NCBI GenBank assembly: GCA_021324885.1
Contig: JAJPIF010000025.1
Coordinates: 46,713-110,712 of the forward strand
Reading direction: 5' to 3'
DNA: 64,000 nt
From: Pseudomonadota bacterium
GTDB lineage: Bacteria; Desulfobacterota; Binatia; Binatales; Binataceae
Shown here: positions 16,332 to 34,700 of the stretch, piece after piece
How positions within the stretch are numbered: the stretch's first letter is position 1
How the letters are laid out: every line of letters begins with the position of its first letter
Made by a program: the position numbers and the translations under genes
Notes under the pieces: generated by a model
The model's input: the letters and a program-made list of their open reading frames with translations, nothing else
Databases searched by the model: none
What the model was told of the DNA's origin: nothing

Positions 16332-17945
16332 TCAGGGGAACCAGTACACCGCGCGGGCGCCGCCGGGCCGCGAGTCGATTTCGGGTGTGACGGCGGTTCC
16401 GGTCCTGGCAAACAAGACCGACACGGCATCACGGTAAATAATTTTCCAGCGCCGATCGCCGGCCATGATGCGATAGGCGCCACCTTGCGGATTTATAAGC
16501 ACGAAGTCGTGCGGGTACCGATCGAGTAACCTGTTCCCGCCGGGCCATGCATACAGGAAAGCCATATATTCCTGCAGTACTGAGTCCGGATACACGACTT
16601 CGCACCGCCCATCGACAAAGATCCTGTCATCCGGACCGCCGTGCCAGATCAGGTAAGCGCCCCAGCTCAGTTTGTTCAGTATGTTCCCATGCAGACCGTG
16701 GTCGGTCATGTATTGCACGGCGCCCTTCGGAACCGGGTTCCACGTCCTCAGACGGGTGGAAAACTCGCCACCTAATATCAGCAGGATCAGCGCGGCTTCA
16801 AGTGGAAAAACTACGGTCAGCAGCCGTGAAGGAGCCGCTTTACTCCTCTCCTTCCCGGACTGTCGACGCTTTTCCATAATAAGACCGGCATGATGAGCCA
16901 AAGGAATGCTCAGGGCTATCATCGCCAGCGGCACATTGCGGGAACTGTATATTGCCGCCGCGATAAAGATTGCGGCGACAGCCGCAAGCGGGGCATCCTC
17001 ACCATCCGGCACCGCGACAACCGCACCGAGGAAAGCGACGAACAGGACGAGCGGGATGACGAACTCCATTTCGTGCAACGGCGATTGATGCCATTCGTAG
17101 ATCATTATGTCCGGCAGCGAGAGCCAATCCACAATGAATTTCCTTATAAACGGATGGGACACCGAGTGCAGCACCGTGTCCCAAAGGCCGAAACCGAAGG
17201 GATTGACCAGGGTCGCCATCGCACATGCAATTGTAACCGCACCGATCCTGCAGGCCCGGGAGATCCTCCGCCCCGTTCCCATCTCCCGCCAGCCCACAAA
17301 CAGACTCGTAACTGATAAAGCTCCAAGACCGACGACGAAGCCACCATGCAGATTTGCCCAAAGGGCAAACAGCGGCACCAGCGGCCACATTCGTGCCCGA
17401 CCCTGATAAACCTCGCCGGCGAGAATCGCCATCAGGACGCTCAGCATCGCGATCGTAAATAACTGAGGTCTGAATTGCGCGTAAGGAGCAATACTCGCCG
17501 CTGCCGCGAGCAGAACAATTCTCCGCATGCTGGGCGAAGCCTTGGTCCGGGACAGTCCCGCCGCGAGGCCGGCGACGGCCACGCCAACGCATAGCAGTTT
17601 GACAACCTTCAGCCCTATGATCCCCAGCGAGTCGTAAAAAAAAGCAAAAATAAGCTGCGCCAACCACACATGATTATGCCATGGTTGCACGGGACCCGAA
17701 TACGAAAATGAATTACGCGGCGGTATGTAACCCCCGCTCAGCATTTCGCGCCCCAACAAAATATGCATCCAAAGATCGGGGTCGGCGAAATTTACACAGG
17801 CGGCAGCCGCAATTGCCAGTATCACGAATGCGGGAGAAGACTCCAGCAGCCCAGGTCCGGACTGAACCGGTGTCTGCGGAGCTGTAAGCTGCGGCGCTTC
17901 ACAATTGGCTGCTTGCGGCGAGGCCGTCGCGCGGTTCATTTTCAA
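16332..17945 (-). CDS. large polytopic membrane protein, putative GT-C-fold glycosyltransferase (family unassigned); paralog A1
   Basis: 537 aa; more than 10 predicted TM helices then a C-terminal soluble domain. First-loop acidic motif DPDLWMH. Clearly paralogous to the next gene (shared ADPDLW.H, LWANxHGGF, WK.IYRD). Confidence 0.55.
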   Translation of the reverse strand: MKMNRATASPQAANCEAPQLTAPQTPVQSGPGLLESSPAFVILAIAAAACVNFADPDLWMHILLGREMLSGGYIPPRNSFSYSGPVQPWHNHVWLAQLIFAFFYDSLGIIGLKVVKLLCVGVAVAGLAAGLSRTKASPSMRRIVLLAAAASIAPYAQFRPQLFTIAMLSVLMAILAGEVYQGRARMWPLVPLFALWANLHGGFVVGLGALSVTSLFVGWREMGTGRRISRACRIGAVTIACAMATLVNPFGFGLWDTVLHSVSHPFIRKFIVDWLSLPDIMIYEWHQSPLHEMEFVIPLVLFVAFLGAVVAVPDGEDAPLAAVAAIFIAAAIYSSRNVPLAMIALSIPLAHHAGLIMEKRRQSGKERSKAAPSRLLTVVFPLEAALILLILGGEFSTRLRTWNPVPKGAVQYMTDHGLHGNILNKLSWGAYLIWHGGPDDRIFVDGRCEVVYPDSVLQEYMAFLYAWPGGNRLLDRYPHDFVLINPQGGAYRIMAGDRRWKIIYRDAVSVLFARTGTAVTPEIDSRPGGARAVYWFP

Positions 17946-17979
17946 GACGTCGAGTGTGTTGGATTTCCGCTGCTGTCAG

Positions 17980-19560
17980 CTATGGAAAAAAAGTGGCCAC
18001 GGGGGATTCATTTGAGATCTCGGGCGTAATTGCGGCGTTCGCGTCCGTGGCCTTGGCGTATAAAGAGGCAACCGGGTCGCGGTAGATCAGCTTCCAGCGT
18101 GAATCGGAGTTCACCAATTCAAAAGCGCCGGTACCTGGCTCAACCAGCACGAAATCGTGACGATAATCGTTAAGGACCTTGTTTCCAACTGGCCAGCCGT
18201 ACAAAAAACTGAGATATTGCGACCGCAGTTTTTCTGAATACACGAGTTGATAGCGGCTGTCGATGAAGATTCTGCTTGCCGGCGCAAGGTGCCAAATCAG
18301 ATAGCCGCCCCAGTCGTAATTATTCAAAATGTTGCCGTGAAGACCATGCGATTCCATGAATGCGACCGCACCTTCTGGTACCGGCTCCCAGGTTTTTAGA
18401 CTGCCGGACAATTCACCTCCCACCATTCCGATTATGACCGCGGCGACGAGCGCAAGCGCCGCCCTGGGCTGCGCCGAAATTGTGTTGACAGCATCGGGCC
18501 CGCGATTTCGCGCGGCAATTCCAAGGTGGTGTGTCAGGGGAATGCTTACTGCAATAATCGCCAGCCCGACATTGCGATTGGAGTAAAAGGCTCCTGCAAT
18601 AAAAACCAGCGCAATCGCCGTCAGCCCGGCGTCGTCGAATACCCGAGTCTCCACCAACACCGCAGGCAGACCCACGAACAGCAACAATGGCACGGCATAG
18701 GCGATGGGTTCGGAAATCGACTCCCGCGATGCGTGAAACAGAAAAATCGGGAGGGGCGCCCAATCCGATATTATCGGACGCATAAGCGGATCCGATGCGG
18801 ATTTTAAAAAGGTTGTCCATAGACGGATGCCAAGAGGATTGACGAGCGTGGCCAAGGCGCATCCAAGAGTGACTGCAGCAACTACGGCGGTGCGCGCCAG
18901 CGTGCCTTTGATCAGATATTCGCGCAGTCCGCACGTCAGGACGAAAACGCCCAGCGCGCCGAGTCCCGCAAAACAGCCGGCGTGGAAATTGGCCCACAGT
19001 GCAAAGATCGGGATCAGCGTCCATAATCTTACCGGACCGCGGTATGTCTCTGCCGCCAATTTCGCGATCACTATACTCAACATCACCAAAGTGAAAAGAG
19101 TTGGACGAAACTGGATTTGCGAAATGAGCGCGGTGGCCACAACGAGCAACATCACTCGCTGCGTGCGCGCTGGCGCCCCCGTGCGGCCCAGCGCGACAGC
19201 CAGCGCAATCATCAGGATCGCCGAGCACAGCAGCTTTACCAGCTTGAGACCGAGGACGCCCAGCCATCGGTAAGAGGTCCCAAGCACCACTTCGGACAGC
19301 CATTCGTGATTGTCCCAAGGCAACCCCGACGCCGCATATGAGTACAGGTCGCGGGTCAGAATGTGACCTGTCGCGACCATCCGCTGTCCTGCCAGGACAT
19401 GGACCCAGAGGTCCGGATCGGCATAATTGGACGCACAGGCAAACGCAACCGCCAAAACCACGAAGCCCGGCGCGGACCGCAGGACGCTATAGGCCGGGGC
19501 GACAGGCGTCCGCCCCGCGATTTCCCCTTGCGCCGGGTTGATGACTGATTCTGACGTCAT
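17980..19560 (-). CDS. large polytopic membrane protein, putative GT-C-fold glycosyltransferase; paralog A2
   Basis: ORF to 19602, but ATG at 19560 forms an ATGA overlap with the stop of the upstream gene (19557). Paralog of 16332..17945. Confidence 0.55.
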   Translation of the reverse strand: MTSESVINPAQGEIAGRTPVAPAYSVLRSAPGFVVLAVAFACASNYADPDLWVHVLAGQRMVATGHILTRDLYSYAASGLPWDNHEWLSEVVLGTSYRWLGVLGLKLVKLLCSAILMIALAVALGRTGAPARTQRVMLLVVATALISQIQFRPTLFTLVMLSIVIAKLAAETYRGPVRLWTLIPIFALWANFHAGCFAGLGALGVFVLTCGLREYLIKGTLARTAVVAAVTLGCALATLVNPLGIRLWTTFLKSASDPLMRPIISDWAPLPIFLFHASRESISEPIAYAVPLLLFVGLPAVLVETRVFDDAGLTAIALVFIAGAFYSNRNVGLAIIAVSIPLTHHLGIAARNRGPDAVNTISAQPRAALALVAAVIIGMVGGELSGSLKTWEPVPEGAVAFMESHGLHGNILNNYDWGGYLIWHLAPASRIFIDSRYQLVYSEKLRSQYLSFLYGWPVGNKVLNDYRHDFVLVEPGTGAFELVNSDSRWKLIYRDPVASLYAKATDANAAITPEISNESPVATFFP

Positions 19561-21704
19561 CGCGCGGTGGTCAATGCCGCCTTGGTTGAATCGGCACCGC
19601 AATGGCGGAATGCCGCGGGGCGCAAATCCATGAGCATGAAACGCATAATATCGTCCGGCTCCACATGGTCATCGTATGGTGTCGGATATGGATACAGGAT
19701 GCTGACGGCGTCCGATCCGTATTTCGCGGCGAGCGCCCGGGCGGCTATACCAGAGGCAGGCACACCGACGGCAATCGTGCCCGCGGGTCCAGGTCCGACC
19801 CACAAACCATTGTAGGCGTTGTGCGGCAGGCCCGCGACCAGAAAGTCCAGATCGTCGCTCCAACCCGAGTAATTCAGAAGACCAAGCTTGTAAGCCTTGC
19901 GTGGATCGAGTGTCGCCAAATCCCCGCCTTTGGCGATAAACCGTTGCCCCGCACACAGCATATACCTGAACCACGCATCAGCGGTGTCCAGCTGAAATCG
20001 TTCAAGATCCTGCGCAGACGATCGAGGTGAATAGTCCTGACCCAGGCGATAAAGCGAAACGCCACCCACCTTTATCGGCCTGATTCCAAGCGAGGCGGCG
20101 AGCTCGCGCGCGGATCCTTTCGCGTTGTCCACCACGATAATGTCGTCAATTCCGTAGGCCGAGTTGAATGCCCGAAGCTGCTTACCGGGGTCGGGCAATG
20201 GCAAAGAGTTCACCAGCGCATTCACGATAGGCCATCGGCGAAACTCGGCGGGCGTCGTGCTGAGATGGCCGCCGGGCATTCGAAAATACATCGAGGACTC
20301 AGCCTGCCATGCCATGCTCGGTCCGCGCCGGCCGAACGGTATAATCAGAACATTGTCATTGGGTCGGAGATAATTACGGTAAAGGCCGTCTTCAAAGAAG
20401 GCGGGCGTAGCGTAGGTCGATCTTGGTAAAAATATTGCCGGAACGGGCAAAAGCGCCACCATCGTTGCCCCAACAAAGACTTTTTTGAAGGGGAAGTTCG
20501 GTTCGGACAGCCAGCTGGCGAAGATAACCGCCAGAATCAAAAAATCATAATTAGCAAGCCTCACCGGAAGCGCATGACGAATCAAAGGTAGTCTTTCGAC
20601 GAAAGCCCAGGGGAGCATAACAAGCGCACGCCGCTCGACCTGCAATACCGGGCCCAAAGCGGCCACACTAACGATGATCAGAAGAATACAAAGCATTCGC
20701 GCAGACGGGTCGTGACGGTGACTCCATAACCAGATCCCAGCCACCAGTACCAACGGTATACTCAGATAGGAACCGTTTTCCCAGATGTTCCCGGTAAATC
20801 GGGAGGCTATCGCAGTCGCAGTCAACGGCTGAACCAGCAAAAAATGACCCGGAATGACGAAGCTCAGCAGATCCGCGGAAAATAGTCTGGCAGGAAAAAC
20901 CGGATCTTTCGGCGGCGAGCCTTTAACAAACGCGTAATACCAGAAAGGCGCCAGAAGCAGTCCCGCCAGTATATAAGCAAGCCCTGTCGCCCAGACAGCC
21001 CCAATCAGACGCGGCCTCGTCTCGCGAATCATGATTATACCCAGCACTAACGCCGCGGCACCGAACAAAGTCATCGTTGCGAATACTTCTGTGGAAATCA
21101 GGCATTGTAGCGTAAGCGCGGAAGCAAGACCAAGGGCAAACCTGCGCGGGGGCATCCTGTTTTCAACGAGTAATATCACCAGCAACACGCACAAAGGCGC
21201 AACGAAATTAAAGGTCAGAACCGGATGGCCGCCAATCACGTGAGCGACCTCATAAGGAGAAAAGCCGTAAATGAAGCCGCCCGCCAGCGCGCTGACGAAA
21301 TTACGAATCATATGCCGGCAGAGCAGAAATGCGGTCCATGCGGATAATGCCGGCGCAATCAGGGAGGCGACATTGTAGGCGACAACCGGACCAAGTGCGC
21401 AAGTGATCGGCGCCATTGCGATTGCAACGGCAGGCATCGAAGTCGCCCATGTCAAGTTGTAGCCGGTCCGCGGCCAAACCGCATGCGTGATAAACGGATT
21501 CAGGTGATTGGCAATGGCATGGGGCCACCACTCCAAATACCACATCATCATCGCCGGGTCGCTGAAGTAGCCTATGTGCAAGCGGGCGGGATCGAAGATC
21601 ACCGGAATCCCGAAAAAACAAATCGAAACGCAAATGTAGATTAGTAGAGCCGTCAATCCCCCTTTGTTTAAGCTCGTCGGCTTGAAATCTTTCGCGAAAA
21701 GCAT
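19557..21704 (-). CDS. large polytopic membrane protein with C-terminal extracytoplasmic domain, putative GT-C-like; paralog B1
   Basis: 715 aa; N-terminal multi-TM region (GYFSDPAMMMWYLEWWPHAIANHLNPFITHAVWP) and a C-terminal domain of about 250 aa. Paralog of 21811..23922. Confidence 0.55.
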   Translation of the reverse strand: MLFAKDFKPTSLNKGGLTALLIYICVSICFFGIPVIFDPARLHIGYFSDPAMMMWYLEWWPHAIANHLNPFITHAVWPRTGYNLTWATSMPAVAIAMAPITCALGPVVAYNVASLIAPALSAWTAFLLCRHMIRNFVSALAGGFIYGFSPYEVAHVIGGHPVLTFNFVAPLCVLLVILLVENRMPPRRFALGLASALTLQCLISTEVFATMTLFGAAALVLGIIMIRETRPRLIGAVWATGLAYILAGLLLAPFWYYAFVKGSPPKDPVFPARLFSADLLSFVIPGHFLLVQPLTATAIASRFTGNIWENGSYLSIPLVLVAGIWLWSHRHDPSARMLCILLIIVSVAALGPVLQVERRALVMLPWAFVERLPLIRHALPVRLANYDFLILAVIFASWLSEPNFPFKKVFVGATMVALLPVPAIFLPRSTYATPAFFEDGLYRNYLRPNDNVLIIPFGRRGPSMAWQAESSMYFRMPGGHLSTTPAEFRRWPIVNALVNSLPLPDPGKQLRAFNSAYGIDDIIVVDNAKGSARELAASLGIRPIKVGGVSLYRLGQDYSPRSSAQDLERFQLDTADAWFRYMLCAGQRFIAKGGDLATLDPRKAYKLGLLNYSGWSDDLDFLVAGLPHNAYNGLWVGPGPAGTIAVGVPASGIAARALAAKYGSDAVSILYPYPTPYDDHVEPDDIMRFMLMDLRPAAFRHCGADSTKAALTTAR

Positions 21705-21810
21705 TGAGATTATTATGGGAACGCAATTTCAACGCGAGCATCGGACGAGCATCGGCAAAAGACGACGCCTCGCCCTATTCGGATTTCAAGCCTTCGTGTG
21801 GTTGCGCAGA

Positions 21811-23922
21811 TCATTTGAGTACCGCCCATGACGAGGTTGCGGAATCCAAATCGCAGCGCCGCAATGCCTCCGGGCGCAGGTTCATAAGCAGAAAATGGAC
21901 GTTATCGTCGGGGGCCGCGGTATTCCTGTATTCCCGTGGATAGGGATACAAAACCCGGGTCGCATCATTTTTAAACTGCGCAGCGAGTACATGGGCGGCA
22001 AAACCTGACGCCGGAACGCCGACCGCCACGGTGCCGCCGGCGCCGGGCCCTATCCACAGACCGTTATCGCCCCATTGAAACAATCTGATAAGAGTCTCCA
22101 GATTATCATTCCACCAGGAATCCGGAAGCAGCCCCAGTTCGTGGGCTTTGACCGGGTCGAGTTCCGAGAGCGGGTTTCCCATGGCGAGGTAGCGTTGTGC
22201 GGCGCAGAGCATGTTCAGAAACCACGTCTGCGCCGCGCTTTGCTGAAGGCGTTCGATCGGCTGTACCCGCTCGCGGCCGCCGCCCGTCAGTGGATAGAGA
22301 TACACACCACCAATGCGTTGCGCTTTTATCCCCAGCAAAGAGGGGAGTTCGGCGGCGTTGCCTTCGGCTTTTTGGGTTACGACGATGGCGCTCAGGTTTT
22401 GATCGGCCGCAAAAGCACGCAGTTGCCCGAGAGGATCGGATACTGGAATCGAGGTGAGCAATGTATTAACGACCGGCCAGCGGCGGTAATATTCCGGAAT
22501 CGTCCCGAAGTATCCGCCGGGCATACGAAAGTACATCCATGATTGTGCCTGCCACGCCAGGCTTGGACCGTTGAACGCAAAAGGTATTACAAGAAGATTA
22601 TCGTTGCGGTGAAAATATTTGCGGTAAAGCCCGTCAGCGAAGAATGAAGGCGGATCATAGAGGCATGGATGCAGGAAAAGCAACGGATTCGGAAGGAAGG
22701 CGAGGAGCGTCGCGCACACCATCACTTGCTTGTAGCGCCCGGGTTCCGACAACCACATGCTGAACACGATAGCCAAAACCAGGAATGCGTAGTTGGTAAA
22801 GCGGACCGGCAAAGCGTGTTCGATTAACGGGACTTTCTCCATAACGGCCCAGGGAAAGCGCAGAATCCAGCGCTCGCCAATATGCACCGCCGGACCCAGT
22901 GCGGCGATGAGCACCACAACCAGCAACGCACCGAGCAGCCGCGCTTGCGGCTCGCGCCGGTGACGCCAGAACCAGAAAATGGCAATCGCCAGGAGCGGAA
23001 TACTTAAATATGAACCGGTTTCGGAAAGATTCCCCACGGAGCGCAACCGCACAGCGTCGGCGCCGAACCGGTTAAACAGCATCAATGGGGTGGGAGCGAC
23101 GAAGCTCGTCAAATCGGCGGAAAATTGCCGTATTGCGAGGAGCGGTTCTTTGGGCGCCGATCCTTTGATAAAGACGTAGTACAGGAAAGGACTGAGGATG
23201 ATTATCGCTGATACATAGGCTGTTGCCGCAAGCGGGACGGCGCGGGTGAGGCCGTCACGCCAGCGGCGCGCGATCAGCCATGCCAGTGCAAACGCCACCG
23301 CGCCGAACAGCGTCATGGTCGCGAGCACCTCGGTCGAAATCAATGTCTCGCACACCAGGGCAGCGCAAAACGCGAGGGTGAATTTTGCGGGACCGATACC
23401 ACCCTGGAGCAGCAGGACCACCAGCAAGAGGCACAAAGGCGGGATGAAGTTGAATGTGAGATGGAGATGTCCGCCGAAAACCTCTCCGACCTCGTAGGGC
23501 GAAAAGCCATAGATGAGGCCTCCAGCGAACGAACTTGCGGCATTAGCGGTAAGCCGCCGGCACAAAAGAAAAGCGGCCCATGCGGACAAGGCCGGCGCGG
23601 TCAGCGATGCGGCATTGTAGGCGACGACCGGCCCGAAGATCGCTGTTATCGGAGCGAACGCGGCCGCCACCGCCGGAATCGATGTCGCCCAGGTCAGATT
23701 GTAGCCGGTCGAGGGCCAGACGGCGTAGGTAATGAACGGGTTTATCCGGTGCCACACGGCATACGGCCACCATACCAGGTACCACATCATCATGGAGGGG
23801 TCGCCAAAGTGTCCCCCAATGTAAAAGCGGCTCGGTCCGGCTCCAATCAGGTACGCCCCAAAGAGGAGGATCGAAATCAGAAGATAAAGCACGAACACCG
23901 ACAGGGGCCGGATTCCTAGCAT
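21811..23922 (-). CDS. large polytopic membrane protein, putative GT-C-like; paralog B2
   Basis: 703 aa; shares block-wise identity with B1 (GHFGDPSMMMWYLVWWPYAVWHRINPFITYAVWP etc). Confidence 0.55.
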   Translation of the reverse strand: MLGIRPLSVFVLYLLISILLFGAYLIGAGPSRFYIGGHFGDPSMMMWYLVWWPYAVWHRINPFITYAVWPSTGYNLTWATSIPAVAAAFAPITAIFGPVVAYNAASLTAPALSAWAAFLLCRRLTANAASSFAGGLIYGFSPYEVGEVFGGHLHLTFNFIPPLCLLLVVLLLQGGIGPAKFTLAFCAALVCETLISTEVLATMTLFGAVAFALAWLIARRWRDGLTRAVPLAATAYVSAIIILSPFLYYVFIKGSAPKEPLLAIRQFSADLTSFVAPTPLMLFNRFGADAVRLRSVGNLSETGSYLSIPLLAIAIFWFWRHRREPQARLLGALLVVVLIAALGPAVHIGERWILRFPWAVMEKVPLIEHALPVRFTNYAFLVLAIVFSMWLSEPGRYKQVMVCATLLAFLPNPLLFLHPCLYDPPSFFADGLYRKYFHRNDNLLVIPFAFNGPSLAWQAQSWMYFRMPGGYFGTIPEYYRRWPVVNTLLTSIPVSDPLGQLRAFAADQNLSAIVVTQKAEGNAAELPSLLGIKAQRIGGVYLYPLTGGGRERVQPIERLQQSAAQTWFLNMLCAAQRYLAMGNPLSELDPVKAHELGLLPDSWWNDNLETLIRLFQWGDNGLWIGPGAGGTVAVGVPASGFAAHVLAAQFKNDATRVLYPYPREYRNTAAPDDNVHFLLMNLRPEALRRCDLDSATSSWAVLK

Positions 23923-23935
23923 TTAGGGGTTCCGC

Positions 23936-25270
23936 TCAACCCGCGGTGGCGTGGCGAGAAGTCGGGATGCGAAATAATGGGATGTCTGTCCGCGAGGTCT
24001 TATCATCGATGTTCGTCGCATTGAGAGTAAACGACAAAGTAGCCATATATAAAACGATTGTCGCCACACCATACAACTCAAGGGCCATCTCGTAAAGCCG
24101 ATAGGCTTGACGGTAACCGAGGTACGAGATGATCGCGTGGGGCGGCGGCATGAACATCAGGGTTACGACCGTCAGGGAATAACTCGCCAAGGCCAACCAT
24201 TGTGCAGGGGAATCGATCCGGGAGCGGATGGAGGCGTAGATGATTTGTGAGAAGGGAATCAGGAAAAGCACCATGTAGTGAGGCCATGCTGTGGGTGAGA
24301 GCAACACGGACGCGACGATCCAAAGCGAAAATCCCCGCCAATCCGGGTCATCGCCTGGTTTCAGCTTGAAGGTTGCCCAGATTGTTATCCCTAGAAAGGC
24401 GGCATCCACGCCTGCGATGGTCAACCGCCGGATCAAATCGACGGTCGGCGTAAGTTGCTGCCCCATGGTGAACCAGAACACGCGGGATATAATCGCTTCA
24501 ATGGCGATGTCTATGTGACGGGCCTGTGAAAGATGTCCGAAGGTAAGCGCAACGCCATCCGTGAAAGACAGAGAATTCCTAATTCCAAAGATAGCGAGCG
24601 TAACCAAGCCGCCCGATCCGAGTCCAACACAAGTCCAGGCGAGCACGCGCCACCGGCGCTGAAGCGCCAGGTAAACGATCAGGAGCAAGGGAAAAATTCT
24701 GAGCAGACCGGCTAAAGCGAGAAAAATACCGGCCGCTCGATTCCAGCCCCTCTCCATCGCGCGCATCATCAAGACTAACAGCATCAGAATCGGGATTTTG
24801 CTTTGCGCAAACAGGTAATGCCATCCCAACGGCGGATAGAGCACTACCAAAGCGGTTATGGCCAATCGGCCCCTCGTAGTCAGACCTGAGGACCCTCCAA
24901 GGAGCAGGATGAAGGCGGCGCCGAGAAGGAACGTGTTGAGGCCAAGCCAGACATCGTACGCGGCGCGCTCCGGGATTCGGGCTAGCGGCGAAATCAACAG
25001 CAGAAAAGTGGGAGGATCGGTCGCATGACCGATCGGGCCGGCGTCCAGGCCGAGCTGCCCCCCGAGAGCATTGAAATCCGCCGTGTATGGATTAAGTCCG
25101 TCCCGCAACGCGGTTGCGGACAGATAATATATACTGAAGTCCCAGCGTGTGACTCGCCCCGGCAGTTGGACAATGATGCTCAAACCCTGGAGGATCGCGG
25201 CCACCCAGATCAGAGTAAGGGCGGCGGGCCCTGTTGAAGCTTGTGCAATTCTGGCGGGCGTGATACTCAA
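23936..25270 (-). CDS. glycosyltransferase family 87 (DUF2029, PimE/mannosyltransferase-like) membrane protein
   Basis: 444 aa polytopic. N-terminal DFSIYYLSATALRDGLNPY motif characteristic of DUF2029/GT87. 13-bp gap to the next gene and 48-bp gap from tadG. Confidence 0.55.
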   Translation of the reverse strand: MSITPARIAQASTGPAALTLIWVAAILQGLSIIVQLPGRVTRWDFSIYYLSATALRDGLNPYTADFNALGGQLGLDAGPIGHATDPPTFLLLISPLARIPERAAYDVWLGLNTFLLGAAFILLLGGSSGLTTRGRLAITALVVLYPPLGWHYLFAQSKIPILMLLVLMMRAMERGWNRAAGIFLALAGLLRIFPLLLIVYLALQRRWRVLAWTCVGLGSGGLVTLAIFGIRNSLSFTDGVALTFGHLSQARHIDIAIEAIISRVFWFTMGQQLTPTVDLIRRLTIAGVDAAFLGITIWATFKLKPGDDPDWRGFSLWIVASVLLSPTAWPHYMVLFLIPFSQIIYASIRSRIDSPAQWLALASYSLTVVTLMFMPPPHAIISYLGYRQAYRLYEMALELYGVATIVLYMATLSFTLNATNIDDKTSRTDIPLFRIPTSRHATAG

Positions 25271-25318
25271 GAGGCCGCTATTATAGCTCGTCAGACATAT
25301 GCTTTCAGCCTGCCGTCG

Positions 25319-26416
25319 CTACTGAATCAACTGAATTGCGATAGCGCCGCATGGTGTGGTTCCGCTGGGACCGCCCTCGCAGCCCGCGGGAGCACTGCCG
25401 CTGATGCCACCACCGGGGACGTCATCCGCAACCCAGCACGCGCTGATATCCTGCGAAGATCCGGCTCCGGTAACGTTTTGAATTAGAATTTCCGCAAAAC
25501 CAAGGACCGGAACACCGTTGGCCGGGCATCTGCCGGCGGGACAGAGGTTCCAATCGACCAAAGGAACGGTCACCACGCATGGGTTGGTGGTAGGCGAGTA
25601 CTGGTAGGCGTCCGCGCAGCTTACCGCTGGACAGGTACGGTAATCGGAGACCGTCTTAAACGAGGAGGTTCCGGCACCCGGCTGAGGCAGAGTGCAATTC
25701 TGAGTATTGGTTCCGTTACAAACGGTTCCCGCTGGAACCTCTGTAACCGTTCCGGTGTATCCATACTGGATCTGAGTGTTGACCGCTTCATGGCCCGTGG
25801 CATCGAACGAGAGCCAGCCCCAGTTGCCGGCAACGCAGCCGCCTGTTGGACATCCACTGGTGCCAAGGGCAACCAGATTGGAAATTGAGTTATTGGCTGA
25901 GAATTCTGCAACGGTTTGGTACTGCAAGCCGATAGGCAGCAGACTGGAGGAACCCGTTATCGTGTTTATCGGGCCGCCGATGGCCGACGCTGTCACGTCG
26001 ACGGTCCCACTGGATACGCCGACCAGGCGGGCGAAATGGTAGGGCACGCTCCTGGTTGCGGAAACAGTGATTTCACAATTGGTGGTTGGACAGTAGGTGG
26101 AATTTGTGGTCGGTGGCGCAGGTGGATAGGGGGTCAATTCGGTCGACGCAAGTCCGTTGTTGGTCGCGTAGTCGCCGGCTACGATGCTCGGCCCCGCGGT
26201 GCAGCTACTCGAGGTTGGGAACGCGATGCAGGTTGCGCCTGCGAGTGCGGAGGCGTCGACCGCGGTCTGTAACCGGTACTTGGTGAAATAAAGTGCGCCG
26301 ACATCCATGGCAAGGCCCAACGCCCCGATGAAGGCGGGGAGCGCTACCGCCATCAAAGCCATCGACTGTCCCCGTTCGGAGGTCAATCTGGCACCGCGGA
26401 AATTTCTGCGCTTCAT
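25319..26416 (-). CDS. tadG: TadG/TadE-like Flp pilus assembly protein (pseudopilin-like, Tad_N motif)
   Basis: Start at internal Met (MKRRNFRGARLTSERGQSMALMAVALPAFIGALGLAMDVGALY), the TadE/TadG N-terminal signature. Long Thr/Ser/Gly/Cys-rich extracellular part. Confidence 0.65.
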   Translation of the reverse strand: MKRRNFRGARLTSERGQSMALMAVALPAFIGALGLAMDVGALYFTKYRLQTAVDASALAGATCIAFPTSSSCTAGPSIVAGDYATNNGLASTELTPYPPAPPTTNSTYCPTTNCEITVSATRSVPYHFARLVGVSSGTVDVTASAIGGPINTITGSSSLLPIGLQYQTVAEFSANNSISNLVALGTSGCPTGGCVAGNWGWLSFDATGHEAVNTQIQYGYTGTVTEVPAGTVCNGTNTQNCTLPQPGAGTSSFKTVSDYRTCPAVSCADAYQYSPTTNPCVVTVPLVDWNLCPAGRCPANGVPVLGFAEILIQNVTGAGSSQDISACWVADDVPGGGISGSAPAGCEGGPSGTTPCGAIAIQLIQ

Positions 26417-26576
26417 GGTTCGGCTCCTTGGGTTTGAAGTGTGACTGGCAGCCATTGCCCCAGACAGCAGGAATGGAGCTGTAGACTTCTCTCTGTATAT
26501 AAAATCTCCGAAAAGAAGACAACGGTTACAAGTTTGGGTTGGCCGCTGGTCACGCCGCTACTCCGTCAGAGGGACT

Positions 26577-27515
26577 TCACATGTGAGCAAAAAACCGAAA
26601 AATGGTGAGCATGGCGGGGCCGACCAGCACCAGCAGCATCGCGGGCATCAGGAACAGGATCATCGGAATGATCATTTTGATCGGCAGCTTCTGAGCCATC
26701 TCCTCCGCCCGCAGGCTGCGCTTTGCACGCAACTGTTCGGCGGTGGCCCGCAGCGCCTCACTCATCTCGCTGCCCAGCTTTTCGCTTTGAATGAGGATGG
26801 CGGAAAGGGTACTGATGTCGTCCACGCCGGTCCGCTCCGCCATACCCCGCAATGCCTGTCCCAGAGTGGCCGCCGCGGTCATCTCGGCACAGAGCTGGAG
26901 CAGCAATTGACCCATAATACGCCGTTGGCGCTCCGATTCGCGGCCGACCACGCGGATTGCGGCCATCAGACCCAGGCCGCATTCGACGCATACCACGAGG
27001 AGGTCGATTACGTCGGGAATTTCGCGCCTGAGCGTAAGCTGGCGGTGTTTTGCCATTGACCGAACGTAGAAAATAGGTAGGGCATAGCCGGCCGCGCCGA
27101 ACACCAGCGTATAGAAAATGATAGAGCCGCCGGTGGCAACGGCCGCCAGGTACGCCACCAGGATACACAACCCAGTCGTGGCCAGGCGGACGAATTGGAA
27201 AACTTTTGGAGCCGCGGGGCTATAGAAGCCGGCGTATTGCAGAGTTTGCACCAGCTTCTCAACCGACGGTTTCTCCAGGTCGGGTTCGGGCATACGCCGC
27301 TGGGCGAAATCCATCAGCGTGGCGGCAATTCCGTGGGAGATTGGCTCCTCTGCCGGGGCGGTATTATCGCCAATTCTGAATTTCACCGCGAGATCGTCCA
27401 GACGCCGTTGGAGCTGTCTCTGGCCCCTGTCGACCGCGAAGTACAAGGTGGCACATACCCCGAACGCGAGCAGGAAGAACATCAGCAATGGCAATGTTTC
27501 GGTGCCGGCATTCAT
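26577..27515 (-). CDS. tadC: Flp pilus assembly protein TadC (type II secretion system F family)
   Basis: 312 aa; GspF-like inner-membrane platform pattern. Adjacent to tadB. Confidence 0.75.
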   Translation of the reverse strand: MNAGTETLPLLMFFLLAFGVCATLYFAVDRGQRQLQRRLDDLAVKFRIGDNTAPAEEPISHGIAATLMDFAQRRMPEPDLEKPSVEKLVQTLQYAGFYSPAAPKVFQFVRLATTGLCILVAYLAAVATGGSIIFYTLVFGAAGYALPIFYVRSMAKHRQLTLRREIPDVIDLLVVCVECGLGLMAAIRVVGRESERQRRIMGQLLLQLCAEMTAAATLGQALRGMAERTGVDDISTLSAILIQSEKLGSEMSEALRATAEQLRAKRSLRAEEMAQKLPIKMIIPMILFLMPAMLLVLVGPAMLTIFRFFAHM

Positions 27516-27516
27516 T

Positions 27517-28476
27517 TTAGTAATCCACCCGGGTGAAGCGCGAAATGGTGATCAACGCCAGGACTTCCAAAATCGCGGCGACCTCGACCAGTTTGATGCC
27601 GGTGGGGTCATGGAACAGCATCTGATTATGCTCAGGGGCCACAAAGTTCAACGCAACCAGCAGTATCAGCGGCATGAGTCCGCCGATGAGTGCACTCATT
27701 CGAGGCTGCGCCGTCAAGGCCCGCACTTTCATTTCCAGCCGCTGCCGGTCGCGAATAGTCTTGGACAACTGGCCGCTGATGCCGGCCAGGCTGCTGCCTA
27801 CTTCGGACTGGATTTTGACGGCGACCACCAGGAAGCGGAGATTCTCATCCGGCATGCGTTGGAGCATATACTCCAAGGCGCGAGCCAGCGGCACACCCAG
27901 CCGGTTTTGCTCCAGCACGATCCGCAATTCACTGGAGGCTGGTTCGCCAAACTCCTCGATTGTGACCTGCAAAGCGCGCTGCAAAGTGTGCCCCGCCTGA
28001 AGCGAGGATTTCATCAGGTCGAGGATTTCGGGCAATTGCTTGTCGAACGCCTTAAGCCGCTGGCGCTTGCGCCAGGCGACGTAGAGCAGAGGGGAGCCGC
28101 CGATAACGACACCCGCGACGACGCTTTGGAAGGTCTGCCACCCGCTCCAGACCGCCACGGCAAACCCCGCAGCGGTACCAAGCACCAGCATAAGCAGTAT
28201 CATGTCGCTGGCGCGGACATAGAGCCCGGCTTGCCAAAGATTCTCCTCCAGGCGCTGAGCCAAGTGCAGTTTCGATACCAAGTCGCCAAACATGTTCGAT
28301 TCGGAGGGACGGACATCGCGGGTGATGTCGATATCCGCCAGGTCCACCTCGGGCGACGGACGCGCCATGCGGCTCAGAATCATCTGCTGCTGGCTGGCGT
28401 AGTCCTGGCGGCGCATCGCCACAATGGTCAGCACCAGCACGGTCAGGAAGACAATCAACGGTACAAGAAGCTCCAT
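27517..28476 (-). CDS. tadB: Flp pilus assembly protein TadB (type II secretion system F family)
   Basis: 319 aa; GspF-like domain. 1-bp gap to tadC. Confidence 0.75.
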   Translation of the reverse strand: MELLVPLIVFLTVLVLTIVAMRRQDYASQQQMILSRMARPSPEVDLADIDITRDVRPSESNMFGDLVSKLHLAQRLEENLWQAGLYVRASDMILLMLVLGTAAGFAVAVWSGWQTFQSVVAGVVIGGSPLLYVAWRKRQRLKAFDKQLPEILDLMKSSLQAGHTLQRALQVTIEEFGEPASSELRIVLEQNRLGVPLARALEYMLQRMPDENLRFLVVAVKIQSEVGSSLAGISGQLSKTIRDRQRLEMKVRALTAQPRMSALIGGLMPLILLVALNFVAPEHNQMLFHDPTGIKLVEVAAILEVLALITISRFTRVDY

Positions 28477-28500
28477 CTCGACCTCCCGCCCGGCGCGGCC

Positions 28501-29874
28501 CTAACGCGCGCCAAACAATTTCGAATCCAGATGCAGTCCGGCGGCTTCAAGCCGCCGGGAGTAAACCGAGCGGATCCCCGTGGGCCGGAAGGTGCCGAGC
28601 ACTTTGCCGTCTGGCCCGACTCCAGTGCGCACGAACTCGAACAAGTCCTGCATCGAGATCGCCTCGCCCTCGACGCCGGTGACCTCTGAAATCTTGATCA
28701 GCTTGCGGCTGCCGTCGGAAAGCCGTGCGACCTGCAAAAAGATGTTGATTGCTGAACTGATCTGGGTTCGCATAGCGCGGTCGGGCAGCGCGAAACCGGA
28801 GAACATCATCATCATTTCAAGGCGGTTGAGGCTGTCGCGCGGACTGTTGGCGTGGATAGTGGAAATCGAGCCGTCATGGCCGGTGGACATGGCCTGAAGC
28901 ATGTCGATTACTTCGGCGCCGCGCACCTCGCCGACAACGATGCGGTCGGGACGCATGCGCAGAGAGTTCCGCACCAGGTCGCGCTGGGTTACCTCGCCTT
29001 TGCCTTCCAGATTGGGTGGACGGGTCTCCAGCCGGACCACGTGCGGTTGCTGGAGCGAAAGTTCGGCCGAGTCCTCGATCGTAATGATGCGTTCGTTGTG
29101 CGGTATAAAGGAGGTCAGGCAGTTCAACATCGTGGTTTTGCCCGATCCGGTACCGCCGCAGACCAGCAGATTGAGCCTGGCTTTGACGATCACATTGAGA
29201 AATTCGGCCATCTGCGTGGTCAGAGTGCCATTCTTGATCAGAGTATCGATGGTGAGCGGCTCGCGTCCGAAGCGGCGGATCGACAGAACCGGACCGTCCA
29301 GAGCCAGCGGTGGAATAATCGCGTTGACGCGCGAGCCGTCGGCCAGGCGCGCATCGACCATCGGCGAGGATTCGTCGACGCGGCGGCCAACGCTGGCAAC
29401 GATGCGTCCGATTACGTTGAGCAGATGTTCGTCATCCTGAAAAACGACATCGGTCTTGTACAGTTTGCCGCCGCGCTCGATATAAACCTCGCTGGAGCCG
29501 TTAACCAGGATATCGCTGATGGTATCGTCGCGGAGCAGCGGCTCCAGCGGCCCGAGGCCAAGGATTTCATTTTTGACCTCTTCGATCAGCCGCAGGCGAT
29601 CCGTATCGGTGACCAGCCGATCCTGCTCCTCCAGATGCTCGTTTATAGCCGCCGTCAGTTTGGTCTGGACCTGGGCCTGATCCAGCGACTCGATTTTGCT
29701 CACGTCCAGCGTGTGAAGCAGATAATCGAGCATCTCGCTTTTCAGTTCGCGAAACGCCGCCGCGTCACCGGTCTCCTTTGTAGTATCCCGGCGCTGGGAA
29801 ACCACCGCCAACGAGGAAACCGCCGTTGAGCCGCTGCCGTTCGCGTTTTTCGAGAGACGTTCACTCAGCGGCAT
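28501..29874 (-). CDS. cpaF: CpaF/TadA family pilus assembly ATPase
   Basis: 457 aa; Walker [15 protein letters not shown], secretion-ATPase His box region. Confidence 0.85.
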
Positions 29875-29877
29875 CGC

Positions 29878-31107
29878 TTATCTCCTGGAGTTCTTCCCAT
29901 TACGTGAGAATGAAAAAAACTTGTTGAACAGGCTGGCCTTGGGCTTCTTCTGAGCCAGACCGCAAAGCTCATTCGCCAACGCTTCATATCCGCGGACCAG
30001 CGCCGAACGAGGCGCGACCTTCCACAGATCTTCACCGCGGGTCACAACCAGCCGAATAGAATCATCGTCGCGGGGCAAGCGTGCGGCCAAGGGACGCCCC
30101 AGCGTATTGGTAATATGCTTGTCGCTGATTGGATGGTGCGCAATCCAGCGGTTGAGGACGATTCTGGGAGCGATATTGGAGAGATTGAGCCGGCCAAACA
30201 GGTCCAGGAAACGCCACGCCCCGCGAATCGCGCCGATCGACTGGTCGATCACGTACACTATCTCGTCCGAGTTCTCCCATGCCGCGACCGAACTGTCGTT
30301 GATGTGGCGACCGACATCCACAATCACCACGTCCACCATCTCGAGCAGCATGGACAGAATATCGGTGACCCGCGAAGAAGGAACTTGCTCGCTTTCCTCG
30401 ATCCGGCGCGGTGCGGCGAGCAGATATATCCCCGAGGGATGTCTGGTCAGGGCGGATTCGACCTGCACCGAGTTAAGGCGGATTTTTGCCTCCGCCAGAT
30501 TAATAATCGAGTGCTCGGGTTCGAGGTTGAGGGCAGCGTCAAGGTCGCCGGACTGGAAGTCCAGGTCAACCAACGCAACCTTTTTTTCGGTCGAATGAGC
30601 TAGCGCCAGTGCGCAGTTGGCAGCGATCGTGGTCACGCCGGCGCCGCCCGTCACGCTGACCATCGAAATCAGTCTGCCCCTGGTACCCGGTTGGGGAGCG
30701 GCACTGACTTCGCTGATTTTCAGCAGAGCGCGGGCCAGTTCTCCCTGGTCGACAGGCAGGAACAGAACCTCATCCGCACCGGCACGCAGCGCGGCGCGCA
30801 CGGCTTGCGGCGCCCGCTCCTTCATCAGCGCAATGCGGACCGGTGTCTTGCCTGATTCGGCGCCCGGCGCCGGAATACGCGCGGGATGACGCTCGCTGGT
30901 GAAGACGAACATCACGACATCGGTGGGCTCGCGCATCTGTTCGGGACGCGCGGCGATATCGGCGTCGTGGATATCCAGCGGCTCCTCGGTGGCTTCCAGA
31001 GCCGCGCGGATTTGCGCGCCATTATCGGGATCGGCAAACAGGAGGACGCGCAGTTTGCGCGGTCCGCCTGCCGGCTCATGAAGCAGGATGTCAGCGTCTT
31101 GCGCCAC
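29878..31107 (-). CDS. cpaE: CpaE/TadZ-like pilus localisation protein (pseudo-receiver + deviant ParA/MinD-like ATPase domain)
   Basis: 409 aa. N-terminal receiver-like domain, then a ParA-fold domain whose Walker A reads SVTGGAGVTT (about 30631-30657) instead of KGGxGK[ST], so both lysines are replaced. Confidence 0.7.
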   Translation of the reverse strand: MAQDADILLHEPAGGPRKLRVLLFADPDNGAQIRAALEATEEPLDIHDADIAARPEQMREPTDVVMFVFTSERHPARIPAPGAESGKTPVRIALMKERAPQAVRAALRAGADEVLFLPVDQGELARALLKISEVSAAPQPGTRGRLISMVSVTGGAGVTTIAANCALALAHSTEKKVALVDLDFQSGDLDAALNLEPEHSIINLAEAKIRLNSVQVESALTRHPSGIYLLAAPRRIEESEQVPSSRVTDILSMLLEMVDVVIVDVGRHINDSSVAAWENSDEIVYVIDQSIGAIRGAWRFLDLFGRLNLSNIAPRIVLNRWIAHHPISDKHITNTLGRPLAARLPRDDDSIRLVVTRGEDLWKVAPRSALVRGYEALANELCGLAQKKPKASLFNKFFSFSRNGKNSRR

Positions 31108-31109
31108 TG

Positions 31110-33050
31110 CTAGAATCTCGGCCGCGCCGCGTCCGGCGTGGTCAGCGAGCGGGTCCGGACTTCTTCCGGCGTCAGCGGTCCCTGGCGTTCGGTGGGCAGC
31201 GCCACTTCGGCACCCGGCGGCAGCGGCCGGACGATTTCCGGGGTCACGCTCATTACCAGTTCATCCTTGTCATGCTGCCAGTAGGTTTGTTTGAACAGGC
31301 TGCCCAAATAGGGAATATCGCCCAGATAGGGAACCTTCTGAACCTGGGCTTTGCTGGTATCGAGAATCAAGCCGGCAATGATCAAGGTCTGGTTATCACG
31401 AAGGCGGACGCGAGTTTCAGCCCGGCGGGTCAGAAATGCCGGCACCGTAAAGCCAAATAGCGAAACACCCTGTGAATAGTCCGGCTGCGAGACTTCCGGC
31501 CGCACCGCCAGGTCGATGTCGCCACCACCGATTACGGTCGGCACGAAGATCACCGAAGTACCATACTGCTTGAATACGATCGTGGTGGTCAGGGCCTGGG
31601 TGATTACGATCGGAATTTCGCCGCCGTCCAGAAACTTCGCCTTTTGACCGGAATTGGCCAGCAGTTGCGGCCGGGCCAGAATTCTGGCGAGGTTGTGCTG
31701 CTCGAGAAACTGGAAAAAGGCATAGGTCGACACATTGGAGTTCTGACCGGCTACCGCGTAAGTAATATTTTGTGAATTCAGCAGCGGCATGGTCGTACCG
31801 CCCGGAACCATGCTGATCGGACCTTCGGCGCCGGCGGCCGTGAAGGGGGTGGCAACATAACCGGGGAAGCTCAGAGCAGTAAAGCCGTACTTGGTCAGGG
31901 CCGCCGAAATGTTGACGCCCATCTGCTCCAGTTTGCTGAGGTCAACCTCGGCCACAATCGCATGCAGCATGACCTCCTGATGGCCCGCGATTTCGGTCCA
32001 AATCTGCCGCTCCAGATAGTTGCCCTGGCTGTCCCAGACCACCAGCGTGCTGAAGCCGGGCTTGTGCCCAACCAGCATCACCTGATGATTTCCGAGCACT
32101 TGGACGTCCGCCACTCCGCTATTGGAGATCGAAATCCGGCTGATAGGCCCGCCGAAATCATAGACCTGGGAGGTTCCGGAGGTGATCGTAATGGTGCCCG
32201 GGGGCAGGTTGTGCCGGCCGCCAAAGGCCACGTGATTGACGTAGCTCTCCGAGCCTGCCAACGCACGCGGATTCGTCGTGAACTGCTGGTTGAGCACAGC
32301 GGGCGGCTGTTCATGCCATTGGCTGCCGGTACTGGCGGCGACGTTGGCCGAAAGCGTCTGCGCCGAGCTATCGGACGACGTCACACCGCTGGCGTAGTCC
32401 TCTCCATTCGCTCCGCTGAATGCGGTTGGTCCCACCACTTCGGTCTTGGTGGTGATGCTATCCCCATTTGCGTTCGCAGCGGCCCCTGAGGACGCAGCCG
32501 CCACCGGTCCGGTTCCTGAGTCGGGGGCGCTGGCGACCACGCCTGCACCGGGTCCCATGGTACCGGCCGGCGCAACGGCAGTTTCAGCCTTCGCTATAGG
32601 CGCAGGGTTCGCCACCGCAGCGGTGGCGGGAGCGTACGGAGCGGGAGCGGCAGTTTCGGGATGACCCGCGCCACTCAAGACCGGCGGCGGTGAGGAGCCC
32701 GGATTGAGCGGGCTGCTGGCATTGACAACACCGCCGACGATGACGTGATAAGTTACGTCTTCGCCCCCCACTTTGGTCTGGATTGAACCTTCGCCAGGCT
32801 GAAAACTGAATATGGTCAGCGAATGGGAGCCGGTGTTTTTGACCGTGAAGGCGTTGGGGTTGCTGATGAAGTTGACCACCGGTGCGGCGGTGGTATCGAC
32901 GTTTTTGATTTGATAAGCCTCGCCAGCCTTAAGCGTCACCGTTACCAGTTGCTGGGCATAAACCTGGCCGGGAGCGAGGGCGGCGCCGGTTATTAGGAGA
33001 GCCGCGACCAAGGCTGCGTGAAAATTAAACTGACTCTTAGTAGGCTTCAT
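31110..33050 (-). CDS. cpaC: CpaC/RcpA secretin (type II/III secretion system secretin family)
   Basis: 646 aa with signal peptide. C-terminal secretin domain pattern. Shares its last base with the cpaB stop/start junction (TAATG). Confidence 0.8.
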   Translation of the reverse strand: MKPTKSQFNFHAALVAALLITGAALAPGQVYAQQLVTVTLKAGEAYQIKNVDTTAAPVVNFISNPNAFTVKNTGSHSLTIFSFQPGEGSIQTKVGGEDVTYHVIVGGVVNASSPLNPGSSPPPVLSGAGHPETAAPAPYAPATAAVANPAPIAKAETAVAPAGTMGPGAGVVASAPDSGTGPVAAASSGAAANANGDSITTKTEVVGPTAFSGANGEDYASGVTSSDSSAQTLSANVAASTGSQWHEQPPAVLNQQFTTNPRALAGSESYVNHVAFGGRHNLPPGTITITSGTSQVYDFGGPISRISISNSGVADVQVLGNHQVMLVGHKPGFSTLVVWDSQGNYLERQIWTEIAGHQEVMLHAIVAEVDLSKLEQMGVNISAALTKYGFTALSFPGYVATPFTAAGAEGPISMVPGGTTMPLLNSQNITYAVAGQNSNVSTYAFFQFLEQHNLARILARPQLLANSGQKAKFLDGGEIPIVITQALTTTIVFKQYGTSVIFVPTVIGGGDIDLAVRPEVSQPDYSQGVSLFGFTVPAFLTRRAETRVRLRDNQTLIIAGLILDTSKAQVQKVPYLGDIPYLGSLFKQTYWQHDKDELVMSVTPEIVRPLPPGAEVALPTERQGPLTPEEVRTRSLTTPDAARPRF

Positions 33051-34093: not shown

Positions 34094-34151
34094 CAGCTTT
34101 GTGTAACTGCGCTCCCATCACAGGCCCGACACATTAAAATCTTGTTTTAAA

Positions 34152-34700
34152 TTATTCAACCATCACCGACGTCGAATTGCTGATCGGTGTTGTTTTAAAC
34201 GTCGAGATAAACGGCAAAGAATACCCCAGGAAATCCGTTGGCAGGAAAAGCTTGTTTCCCTTGTATAAATTGTAACTTATCGTGACGGTGAGCTGGTCGC
34301 CCGAGTTGATGGTGCTATCGCTGCTTCCTGTGCTGGTTGTACAGGCGATGTTGGAAATACTTAGCCCGGAACCGCCGGAGCAGCCGTCAAAGCCTGAAGT
34401 GCAAATGGTTGGCGGGGTCGGCACGTTGGCTTCGATGGTTGAATTGTAGGATGTATCGCAGTTTGAGCCGGTACCATGGACTGCGGCATAGCGCGCAGCT
34501 ACATAAGAATATTCACTGACAGCTAATGCTGCGTTAAAAATCAGGGCAAGCTGCAATCCGCCGAACAGGATAAGCAGGACCACGGCGATGGCGATAGCGG
34601 TTTCAACCATCGCCTGCCCCAGCTCAGCTCGACGCCCACGGCGGACCGTATGGCCTGATTTTCTCGGCAAGAAGCTAGCGTATAAGCATGGTTGACTCAT
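34152..34700 (-). CDS. tadE: TadE-family pseudopilin-like protein
   Basis: ORF 34152..34772. TadE N-terminal pattern RRGRRAELGQAMVETAIAIAVVLLILF after internal Met (34700). No clear Shine-Dalgarno for either start, so the start is uncertain. Ser/Thr-rich extracellular part. Confidence 0.6.
   Translation of the reverse strand: MSQPCLYASFLPRKSGHTVRRGRRAELGQAMVETAIAIAVVLLILFGGLQLALIFNAALAVSEYSYVAARYAAVHGTGSNCDTSYNSTIEANVPTPPTICTSGFDGCSGGSGLSISNIACTTSTGSSDSTINSGDQLTVTISYNLYKGNKLFLPTDFLGYSLPFISTFKTTPISNSTSVMVE

Follow-up and report, generated by a model that had tools for sequence, protein, structure and literature searches.

Tandem GT-C-fold paralogs of two uncatalogued families as the 3'-terminal genes of a tad/flp pilus operon in an uncultured Binataceae bacterium

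Introduction

What are the four large membrane proteins whose genes follow a Tad/Flp pilus locus in an uncultured soil bacterium of the Binataceae, and on what substrate might they act? The question is raised by a stretch of 64,000 nucleotides (positions 46,713 to 110,712 of contig JAJPIF010000025.1, assembly GCA_021324885.1; referred to here as the window) from a metagenome-assembled genome (MAG), in which four co-directional minus-strand open reading frames (ORFs) make up two tandem paralog pairs, here designated A1/A2 and B1/B2. The answer that emerges is that the four proteins belong to two families that are uncurated, family A completely and family B nearly so, and that on the evidence of their predicted folds and conserved residues they are very probably active glycosyltransferases of the GT-C type. 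The wider explanation, in which both families form part of a tad-linked glycosylation module serving the Tad pilus, is put forward more tentatively, as one that could quite easily prove wrong. The four genes are as follows.

16332..17939, minus strand: A1, membrane protein with predicted GT-C fold, family A, 535 aa; the ORF reaches a TTG at 17945 (537 aa)
17980..19560, minus strand: A2, 526 aa from the ATG at 19560; the ORF 17980-19602 corresponds to 540 aa
19557..21704, minus strand: B1, membrane protein with predicted GT-C fold, family B, 715 aa
21811..23922, minus strand: B2, paralog of B1, 703 aa

The four genes and their products

For A1 the start was taken to be the ATG at 17939, following the gene call of the source MAG. 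The genes are tightly packed, the start ATG of A2 sharing bases with the stop codon of B1 (ATGA), while gaps of 34 bp and 106 bp separate A2 from A1 and B2 from B1, respectively. A first-pass annotation of the sequence had proposed that they are tandem paralog pairs, and pairwise alignment establishes that both pairs are indeed true paralogs: BLASTP gives 44% protein identity over 526 aa for A1 and A2 (E 5e-151; 44-45% overall) and 53% over 696 aa for B1 and B2 (E 0). The description of all four products as polytopic is similarly borne out by hydropathy and by the DSSP strings of the structural models discussed below, from which A1 and A2 have about 11 transmembrane (TM) helices and a C-terminal domain of 140 aa, and B1 and B2 about 10-12 TM helices and a C-terminal domain of 290 aa. 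The motifs quoted in the same annotation can all be found in the translations, but two of them fit only one copy exactly; LWANxHGGF is absent from A2, which has LWANFHAGC in its place, while at a motif matched exactly by only one of the B copies the sequence of B2 is GHFGDPSMMMWYLVWWP.

Predicted fold and active-site signature

AlphaFold2 models calculated from the family alignments are confident, with a pLDDT of 93.1 and a pTM of 0.91 in the case of A1, and 89.6 and 0.90 in the case of B1. The folds nearest to the A1 model are those of the protein-modifying GT-C enzymes STT3, DPY19, PglB and AglB, with ALG12, Pmt4 and AftD coming after these top matches in the ranking; the 26 Foldseek matches with E <0.01 consist entirely of GT-C enzymes, STT3 first among them, and 22 reach E <=0.001. 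For the B1 model the best structural matches are AftD and AftA, at a sequence identity of only 12-13%. Likeness to solved GT-C enzymes is thus found for the models of both families, and both have the GT-C fold; top matches lying outside that fold would have told against the GT-C assignment made in the first-pass annotation, and none was seen.

The position of the most strongly conserved residues fits this assignment. The family A sequence ADPDLW, which sits between TM1 (helix 33-49) and the first loop helix (56-71), contains an invariant Asp (D57) and a second one, D55, with a conservation of at least 90%. In family B the sequence SDPxMMMWxLxWWP, lying between TM1 (12-36) and a helix comprising residues 51-65, contains D49, also conserved to at least 90%, together with the invariant residues W55, W59 and W60. 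This position after TM1 is that of the proposed catalytic Asp of solved GT-C enzymes (PMC11127046). A1 and A2 therefore show the features by which GT-C enzymes are recognised, namely 7-13 TM helices with a conserved acidic residue in the extracytoplasmic loop following TM1, and B1 and B2 share the conserved acidic residue after TM1. The GT-C interpretation given in the first-pass annotation is thus supported by the fold and by the conserved Asp, whereas its view that the duplications are recent is not upheld (see below).

Counts of Lys plus Arg over the family A alignment show that the short predicted cytoplasmic loops are rich in these residues, while extracytoplasmic loop 1 and the long loop 248-288 are not, a distribution that supports a topology of 11 TM helices with the N-terminus inside and the C-terminus outside. 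Given this topology, and taking the secondary structure from the model, D57, H92, R159, N198/H200 and R336/N337 would all be expected on the periplasmic side.

Family assignment by sequence

None of the four proteins has a match in Pfam-A (scanned in a copy that did not include DUF6311) or in NCBIfam, so that the description "unassigned family" given to them at the outset was correct. For family A the lack of any Pfam match extends over 56 aligned members and 10 further representatives, while a scan of 55 members of family B yielded only three marginal matches to STT3, one to PTPS_related and one to DUF2079. Searches with a hidden Markov model (HMM) of family A recover 43,612 cluster representatives (clustered at 50% identity) at E <=1e-3 and 19,755 at E <=1e-30, from which the size of the family can be put at a lower bound of at least 19,755 such clusters at E 1e-30 or better; judged by this profile, family A is a very large family without a curated model. 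Its matches in genomes come from the Binataceae, Acidobacteriota, Chloroflexota, Eisenbacteria, Elusimicrobia and lineages of the Candidate Phyla Radiation. The suspicion that these might be novel or poorly described GT-C clades is supported by this combination of a GT-C fold with, for A, no curated model.

Family B lies closer to annotated sequences. Relatives of B at 35-50% identity (mostly 35-41%), for instance P0188, carry the label DUF6311 (PF19830) in precomputed annotation, and on sequence similarity family B would be a sister group of these DUF6311-labelled proteins. One homologue that is 65% identical to B1 (P0127) barely passes the gathering score of the STT3 N-terminal model (PF02516), at 25.5 against 24.5 bits, the Pfam model being one that leaves out the C-terminal motif region. 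A DUF6311-labelled relative 39% identical to B1 also occurs in a glycosylation locus that is not a tad locus (L007, 3821-12109), where its neighbours are two PMT_2/PMT genes, a GT2 gene and two methyltransferases, a donor-synthase context of a kind that was not found in the window.

Searched against the sequences of all PDB chains, neither the A nor the B HMM finds a match up to E 10, and no oligosaccharyltransferase is found among PDB sequences by a profile of the A C-terminal domain or by the full-length A profile. Comparing the A and B profiles with one another using hhalign gives a probability of 0.3%, which implies that A and B are separate families; the possibility that they are divergent copies of a single family was rejected on these grounds. 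Against the PMT_2 protein encoded in the window (see below) the corresponding figures are 0.1% for the A profile and 6% for the B profile, and membership of either family in GT39/GT83 (PMT_2 type) or in GT87 was rejected, there being neither a Pfam match to PF13231 or PF09594 nor a likeness to that PMT_2 protein at the profile level. Membership in GT66 (STT3/PglB/AglB) was likewise rejected, as A1, A2, B1 and B2 show no Pfam STT3 match and no WWDYG motif could be aligned.

Age of the duplications

The first-pass annotation took each pair to be a recent in-place duplication, still early in its divergence, and the tandem, co-directional arrangement of the genes does speak for such an origin. Their sequences speak strongly against it. 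Besides the amino-acid identities of 44-53% already noted, codon-level comparison gives a nucleotide identity of only 53% for the A pair and 59% for the B pair, and at third codon positions where the amino acid is conserved the identity falls to 41-44%, which we take to be at or near saturation. In addition, an identity matrix built from the A and B copies of related loci shows that the partner paralog is less similar than a copy from another genome: the nearest sequences to A1 are L088_A_a (58%) and L087_A_a (56%), those nearest to A2 are L089_A_a (67%), L088_A_c (62%) and L001_A_a (60%), and that nearest to B1 is L089_B_a (63%). It follows that the split between A1-type and A2-type sequences predates the divergence of these genomes. 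With third positions at or near saturation and separate orthologues of the A1 and A2 types present in other MAGs, a recent origin was rejected, and there would seem to be hardly any chance that it is correct.

Every invariant family residue is retained in both paralogs of each pair, which argues for two active enzymes of diverged specificity and not for one active enzyme accompanied by a decaying copy. Family A is in fact strongly expanded in the Binataceae, and among 78 A loci sampled from representative genomes (L009-L086, several MAGs giving more than one locus) a second A copy occurs within 6 kb in 18, implying that tandem duplication is a general habit of the lineage and nothing special to the window.

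Genomic setting: a complete Tad/Flp locus

The four genes form the 3' end of a tad/flp pilus operon. The remaining features of the locus are listed here, a slash marking the division within the pilin sequences.

23936..25270, minus strand: GT87 gene 1, mannosyltransferase-like (Pfam PF09594, E 4.6e-21), 13 bp upstream of B2
25319..34772, minus strand: Tad assembly genes, for TadG-like, TadC, TadB, CpaF/TadA ATPase, TadZ/CpaE, secretin, RcpC/CpaB and TadE-like proteins
34927..35109, minus strand: Flp pilin gene 1, ...KEG/QGYTEYIILLALIAIAAYAAVKALGSNVSTAMTGVAASV, with a G-x4-EY motif, a hydrophobic stretch and a short Ser/Thr-containing tail
35228..35470, minus strand: Flp pilin gene 2, ...EQA/QSYTEYVILLGLIALVAYSAVKFFGSQLTTGLYDQVAPSV
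35710-37179 and 37213-38796, plus strand: PMT_2 tandem pair (Pfam PF13231), ArnT/PMT-like GT-C proteins, divergent from the flp genes
38796..40229, plus strand: U477, a polytopic protein of 477 aa with no Pfam match
40395-41411, minus strand: PAP2_3 phosphatase-like gene, at the far edge of the cluster
41439-42641, minus strand: GT87 gene 2, at the far edge of the cluster, beyond U477

The Tad/Flp locus is complete, and lies upstream of the genes GT87-B2-B1-A2-A1 on the same strand. Its assembly genes are identified by Pfam matches to Tad, T2SSF (twice), T2SSE, AAA_31/CbiA, Secretin, RcpC and TadE, and its two pilin genes carry motifs of the form G/Q-x-Y-T-E-Y or A/Q-x-Y-T-E-Y. The members of the PMT_2 pair are 51% identical to one another in a tblastn cross-match and constitute the third tandem paralog pair of the locus, so that a single pilus operon is flanked by some nine genes of GT-C or GT-C-like type, three tandem paralog pairs among them. 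Homologues of U477 with 37-41% identity occur directly downstream of A genes in two other loci (L089, 13767-15161; L087, 12395-14614), and from this recurrence U477 appears to represent one more conserved membrane family without an assignment, the third of the module.

A number of further observations concern the same region. The best sigma-70-like match of the region scanned for promoters, CTGAAA-17-TATAAT (10/12; 25280-25308, minus strand), from a scan that did not rise above shuffled controls, falls exactly within the 48 bp that separate the stop codon of TadG from the start of GT87, and could represent an internal promoter for the glycosyltransferase module. RcpC (33050-34093, minus strand) ends in a long tail of low complexity in which Gly, Ser, Asp and Ala abound, and the TadE-like protein (34152-34772, minus strand) has Ser/Thr/Gly-rich stretches such as TSTGSSDSTINSG; these are possible targets of periplasmic glycosylation beside the Flp pilins. 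The PAP2 gene may act in synthesis or recycling of a sugar donor, and it is reminiscent of Rv3807c, which serves as polyprenyl-phosphoribose phosphatase in the mycobacterial pathway to the arabinan donor. On the other side of the four genes (12807-16234, plus strand), three genes run towards the 3' end of A1 and encode a VWA-domain protein, a PP2C phosphatase and a BON-domain Ser/Thr kinase; the kinase also adjoins A1 in the independent assemblies L090 and L091, and the three might together form a module that regulates the locus for pilus and glycosylation.

Conservation of the link to tad genes

The loci of the closest relatives (identity of 44% or more) are the four Binataceae loci set out below.

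L001: TadB, TadC, an unassigned ORF, a weak TadG-like gene, a 75-aa ORF, B, GT87, B, A
L002: RcpC through two or three TadG-like genes, then A, B
L088: RcpC through TadG, an 83-aa ORF, GT87, A, A, A, B
L089: CpaF, TadB, TadC, TadG, an unassigned ORF, GT87 (in two fragments), B, A, a U477-like gene

Adjacency to tad genes is retained in all four of these readable related loci, with the glycosyltransferase module always 3' of the tad genes, while the order and copy number of its genes vary in each; the position of GT87 gene 1 is kept in L001, L088 and L089. Judged by co-location and co-orientation, the genes are accessories of the Tad/Flp locus in the window and its closest clade, and family A is also so placed in Acidobacteriota and Eisenbacteria.

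For the wider families, tad and flp genes were looked for within 10 kb in the 78 A loci already mentioned, and 80 B loci from metagenomes were also sampled. True Flp ORFs lie within 10 kb in 7 of the 78 A loci; these include L062, L071, L077 and L078 (Acidobacteriota, Eisenbacteria and Pyrinomonadaceae), the Binataceae loci L032 and L042, and L065, where an A-like gene is followed by flp and then by RcpC and other genes of the tad set. When the 80 B loci were scanned for the same motif as a control, an imperfect one given that they are shorter, they yielded no credible Flp ORF. In L005 (Terriglobales) an A-like gene is followed by two canonical flp genes, a prepilin peptidase, two TadE genes, RcpC, secretin and additional tad genes. 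The A-flp loci of Acidobacteriota contain no GT-C gene besides A, and the link there appears to have arisen independently. In two independent Terriglobales assemblies a gene for a membrane methyltransferase of the PEMT/ICMT family stands directly upstream of the A-like gene that precedes flp (L005, 9147-9821; L006, 615-1289).

For most of the Binataceae A paralogs (35-48% identity) among the 78 loci, the 10 kb on either side are free of tad genes. What most commonly neighbours A is a second A copy (18 loci), followed by genes for a methyltransferase-like protein, a sensor kinase and a PMT_2-like protein.

Proposed function and alternatives

To our knowledge, all characterised GT-C enzymes use a polyprenyl-phosphate sugar donor and an acceptor outside the cytoplasm, and by analogy we infer the same donor, and transfer at the periplasmic face, for A1, A2, B1 and B2. 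They would then be four inner-membrane enzymes, each with its active site on the periplasmic face around the Asp following TM1 and with a periplasmic C-terminal domain, that take sugar from the carrier and pass it to an acceptor outside the cytoplasm; the ancient tandem paralogs, having been kept as distinct lineages, would fit with different linkage or acceptor specificities. Together with the two GT87 genes, the PMT_2 pair, U477 and the PAP2 phosphatase they may be regarded as one glycosylation module, probably co-transcribed with the tad/flp operon and inherited with it.

It is above all the acceptor that must be argued for indirectly. The most likely job of such a module would seem to be stepwise glycosylation of a Tad-pilus substrate, with family A the most plausible choice for the enzyme acting directly on Flp pilin or pseudopilins, and with family B, GT87 and PMT_2 then extending the glycan. 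This is favoured because family A alone recurs beside flp across phyla, because the nearest folds to A are those of GT-C enzymes that modify proteins, and because in TfpW there is a precedent for a pilin-adjacent GT-C enzyme that glycosylates a type IVa pilin. Glycosylation of a Flp pilin has moreover been reported, for Flp1 of A. actinomycetemcomitans (PMC6182317), while in the literature searched there is no enzyme encoded in a tad locus that has been tied to Flp1 glycosylation. That the module serves the Tad pilus in some way is offered on this basis as a tentative proposal, held with a little less than even confidence. That the pilin itself is the acceptor is a good deal more doubtful, and similar doubt must attach to the more specific idea that tad-linked A members are dedicated Flp-pilin or pseudopilin glycosyltransferases, the locus then being the first multi-enzyme periplasmic glycosylation line in a Tad operon. 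Were that unlikely idea correct, A would initiate on the pilin and B, GT87 and PMT_2 would extend, and variable copy number could give rise to diversity of the pilus glycan, for example in evading phage or predators.

There are a number of points that weigh against a role at the pilus. Tad genes are missing from the surroundings of about 90% of the A loci sampled, only about 10% being tad- or flp-linked, and 79 of the 80 B loci have none, only the closest (L093) abutting TadB/TadC; the pilus link must therefore hold for sub-clades and not for whole families, and the notion that families A and B as a whole are tad accessories was rejected. Neither a donor synthase (a GT2 polyprenyl-phosphate sugar synthase) nor a flippase was found when these were searched for in the window. 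Scans for promoters and terminators gave no excess over shuffled controls and are uninformative as to operon structure, so that co-transcription is argued from gene spacing alone. The conserved W428-G429-x-Y431 sequence of family A, which presumably recalls the WWDYG motif of the oligosaccharyltransferases, is not tied to it at the sequence level. GT87 enzymes act on lipoglycans, and the predicted fold of B1 is nearest to polysaccharide arabinosyltransferases, a combination that suggests a glycan acceptor no less than a protein one. Lastly, no glycan density was seen on the Caulobacter Tad pilus (PMC10710030).

Several of these points feed into a strong alternative, according to which the enzymes and their chemistry are the same and the nine or so GT-C genes assemble a glycan or lipoglycan of the surface or periplasm, much as the Emb, Aft and PimE families do for mycobacterial LM, LAM and arabinogalactan, the tad neighbourhood then reflecting co-regulation of an adhesin polysaccharide with pili for attachment, or mere chance. 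The structural matches of B1 to AftD and AftA fit this well, as do the membership of the two GT87 genes in the family of PimE, the presence in the cluster of a PAP2 gene like Rv3807c, the typical occurrence of several distinct GT-C genes per locus in polymer assembly, and the fact that most relatives of A and B lie away from tad loci, often beside other GT-C genes and methyltransferases. What it accounts for less readily is that adjacency to tad is kept in L001, L002, L088 and L089 despite the shuffled order of the glycosyltransferase genes, that A adjoins flp independently in Acidobacteriota at loci without another GT-C gene, and that the folds nearest to A1 belong to enzymes acting on proteins. 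On balance a glycan acceptor is possible, while being judged somewhat improbable. A further alternative keeps the GT-C fold and dispenses with the transferase activity, making the proteins scaffold or substrate-presenting subunits of the Tad machine; there is a precedent for a non-transferase of GT-C type in PIG-U/GAB1 within the glycosylphosphatidylinositol transamidase, but with every invariant family residue kept in all four copies this is considered very improbable.

Comparison with known systems

Set against characterised enzymes, A and B are new families within a known kind of enzyme and do not represent a new kind of system. By fold, family A is nearest to STT3/PglB/AglB and to the DPY19 C-mannosyltransferase (the GT-CA subclass of the literature), yet no sequence likeness to these is detected up to E 10; the WWDYG motif of STT3/PglB/AglB is not alignable in A, which at about 535 aa is also shorter. 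Family B (715 aa) resembles AftD and AftA at no more than the low identity given above and is without the large carbohydrate-binding modules of AftD (1264 aa or more), and while AftD and AftA belong to a cell-wall cluster, B belongs to a pilus operon in a window that contains no genes of the decaprenylphosphoryl-arabinose pathway. Some homologues of B are labelled DUF6311 or pass the STT3 N-terminal model, whereas B1 and B2 themselves match no Pfam model in the copy scanned.

The closest functional model for the pairing of A with flp is TfpW, a GT-C arabinosyltransferase specific for the pilin of Pseudomonas aeruginosa group IV type IVa pili that is encoded beside the pilin gene, has its loop 1 and large C-terminal domain in the periplasm and glycosylates pilin from a lipid-linked donor (bioRxiv 10.1101/2020.04.19.049825). 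The likeness is one of description and involves no sequence comparison, and TfpW is a single enzyme of a type IVa system with known donor-synthesis genes, as against a nine-gene module in a Tad (type IVc) system. GT136 ORF12 offers another parallel, being a GT-C enzyme unlike existing families that founded a new CAZy family, and for which the Asp after TM1 was proposed as catalytic base (PMC11127046); it and the three-component systems of Gtr type differ from the present locus in having a linked synthase and flippase, neither of which was found in the window. A literature search turned up no paper on GT-C enzymes in association with the Tad pilus, and none on DUF6311.

Significance

Much of what bacteria display on their surface is built or decorated by GT-C enzymes, and the catalogue of these enzymes is clearly incomplete; should an activity be shown for family A, it would probably found a new CAZy family, as happened with GT136. 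The link between A and flp/tad genes in Binatota and, independently, in Acidobacteriota provides a testable candidate for the enzymology of Flp pilin glycosylation, and the minimal Terriglobales set of A, flp and tadV should be tractable for heterologous reconstitution. Even if the acceptor were to prove to be a glycan, the locus would still exemplify multi-GT-C assembly in the style of Emb and Aft outside the Actinobacteria. As regards the organism itself, an uncultured soil bacterium, the placing of the A and B genes last in an adhesive Tad/Flp pilus operon suggests that sugars are added to its pili or to a surface glycan linked with them.

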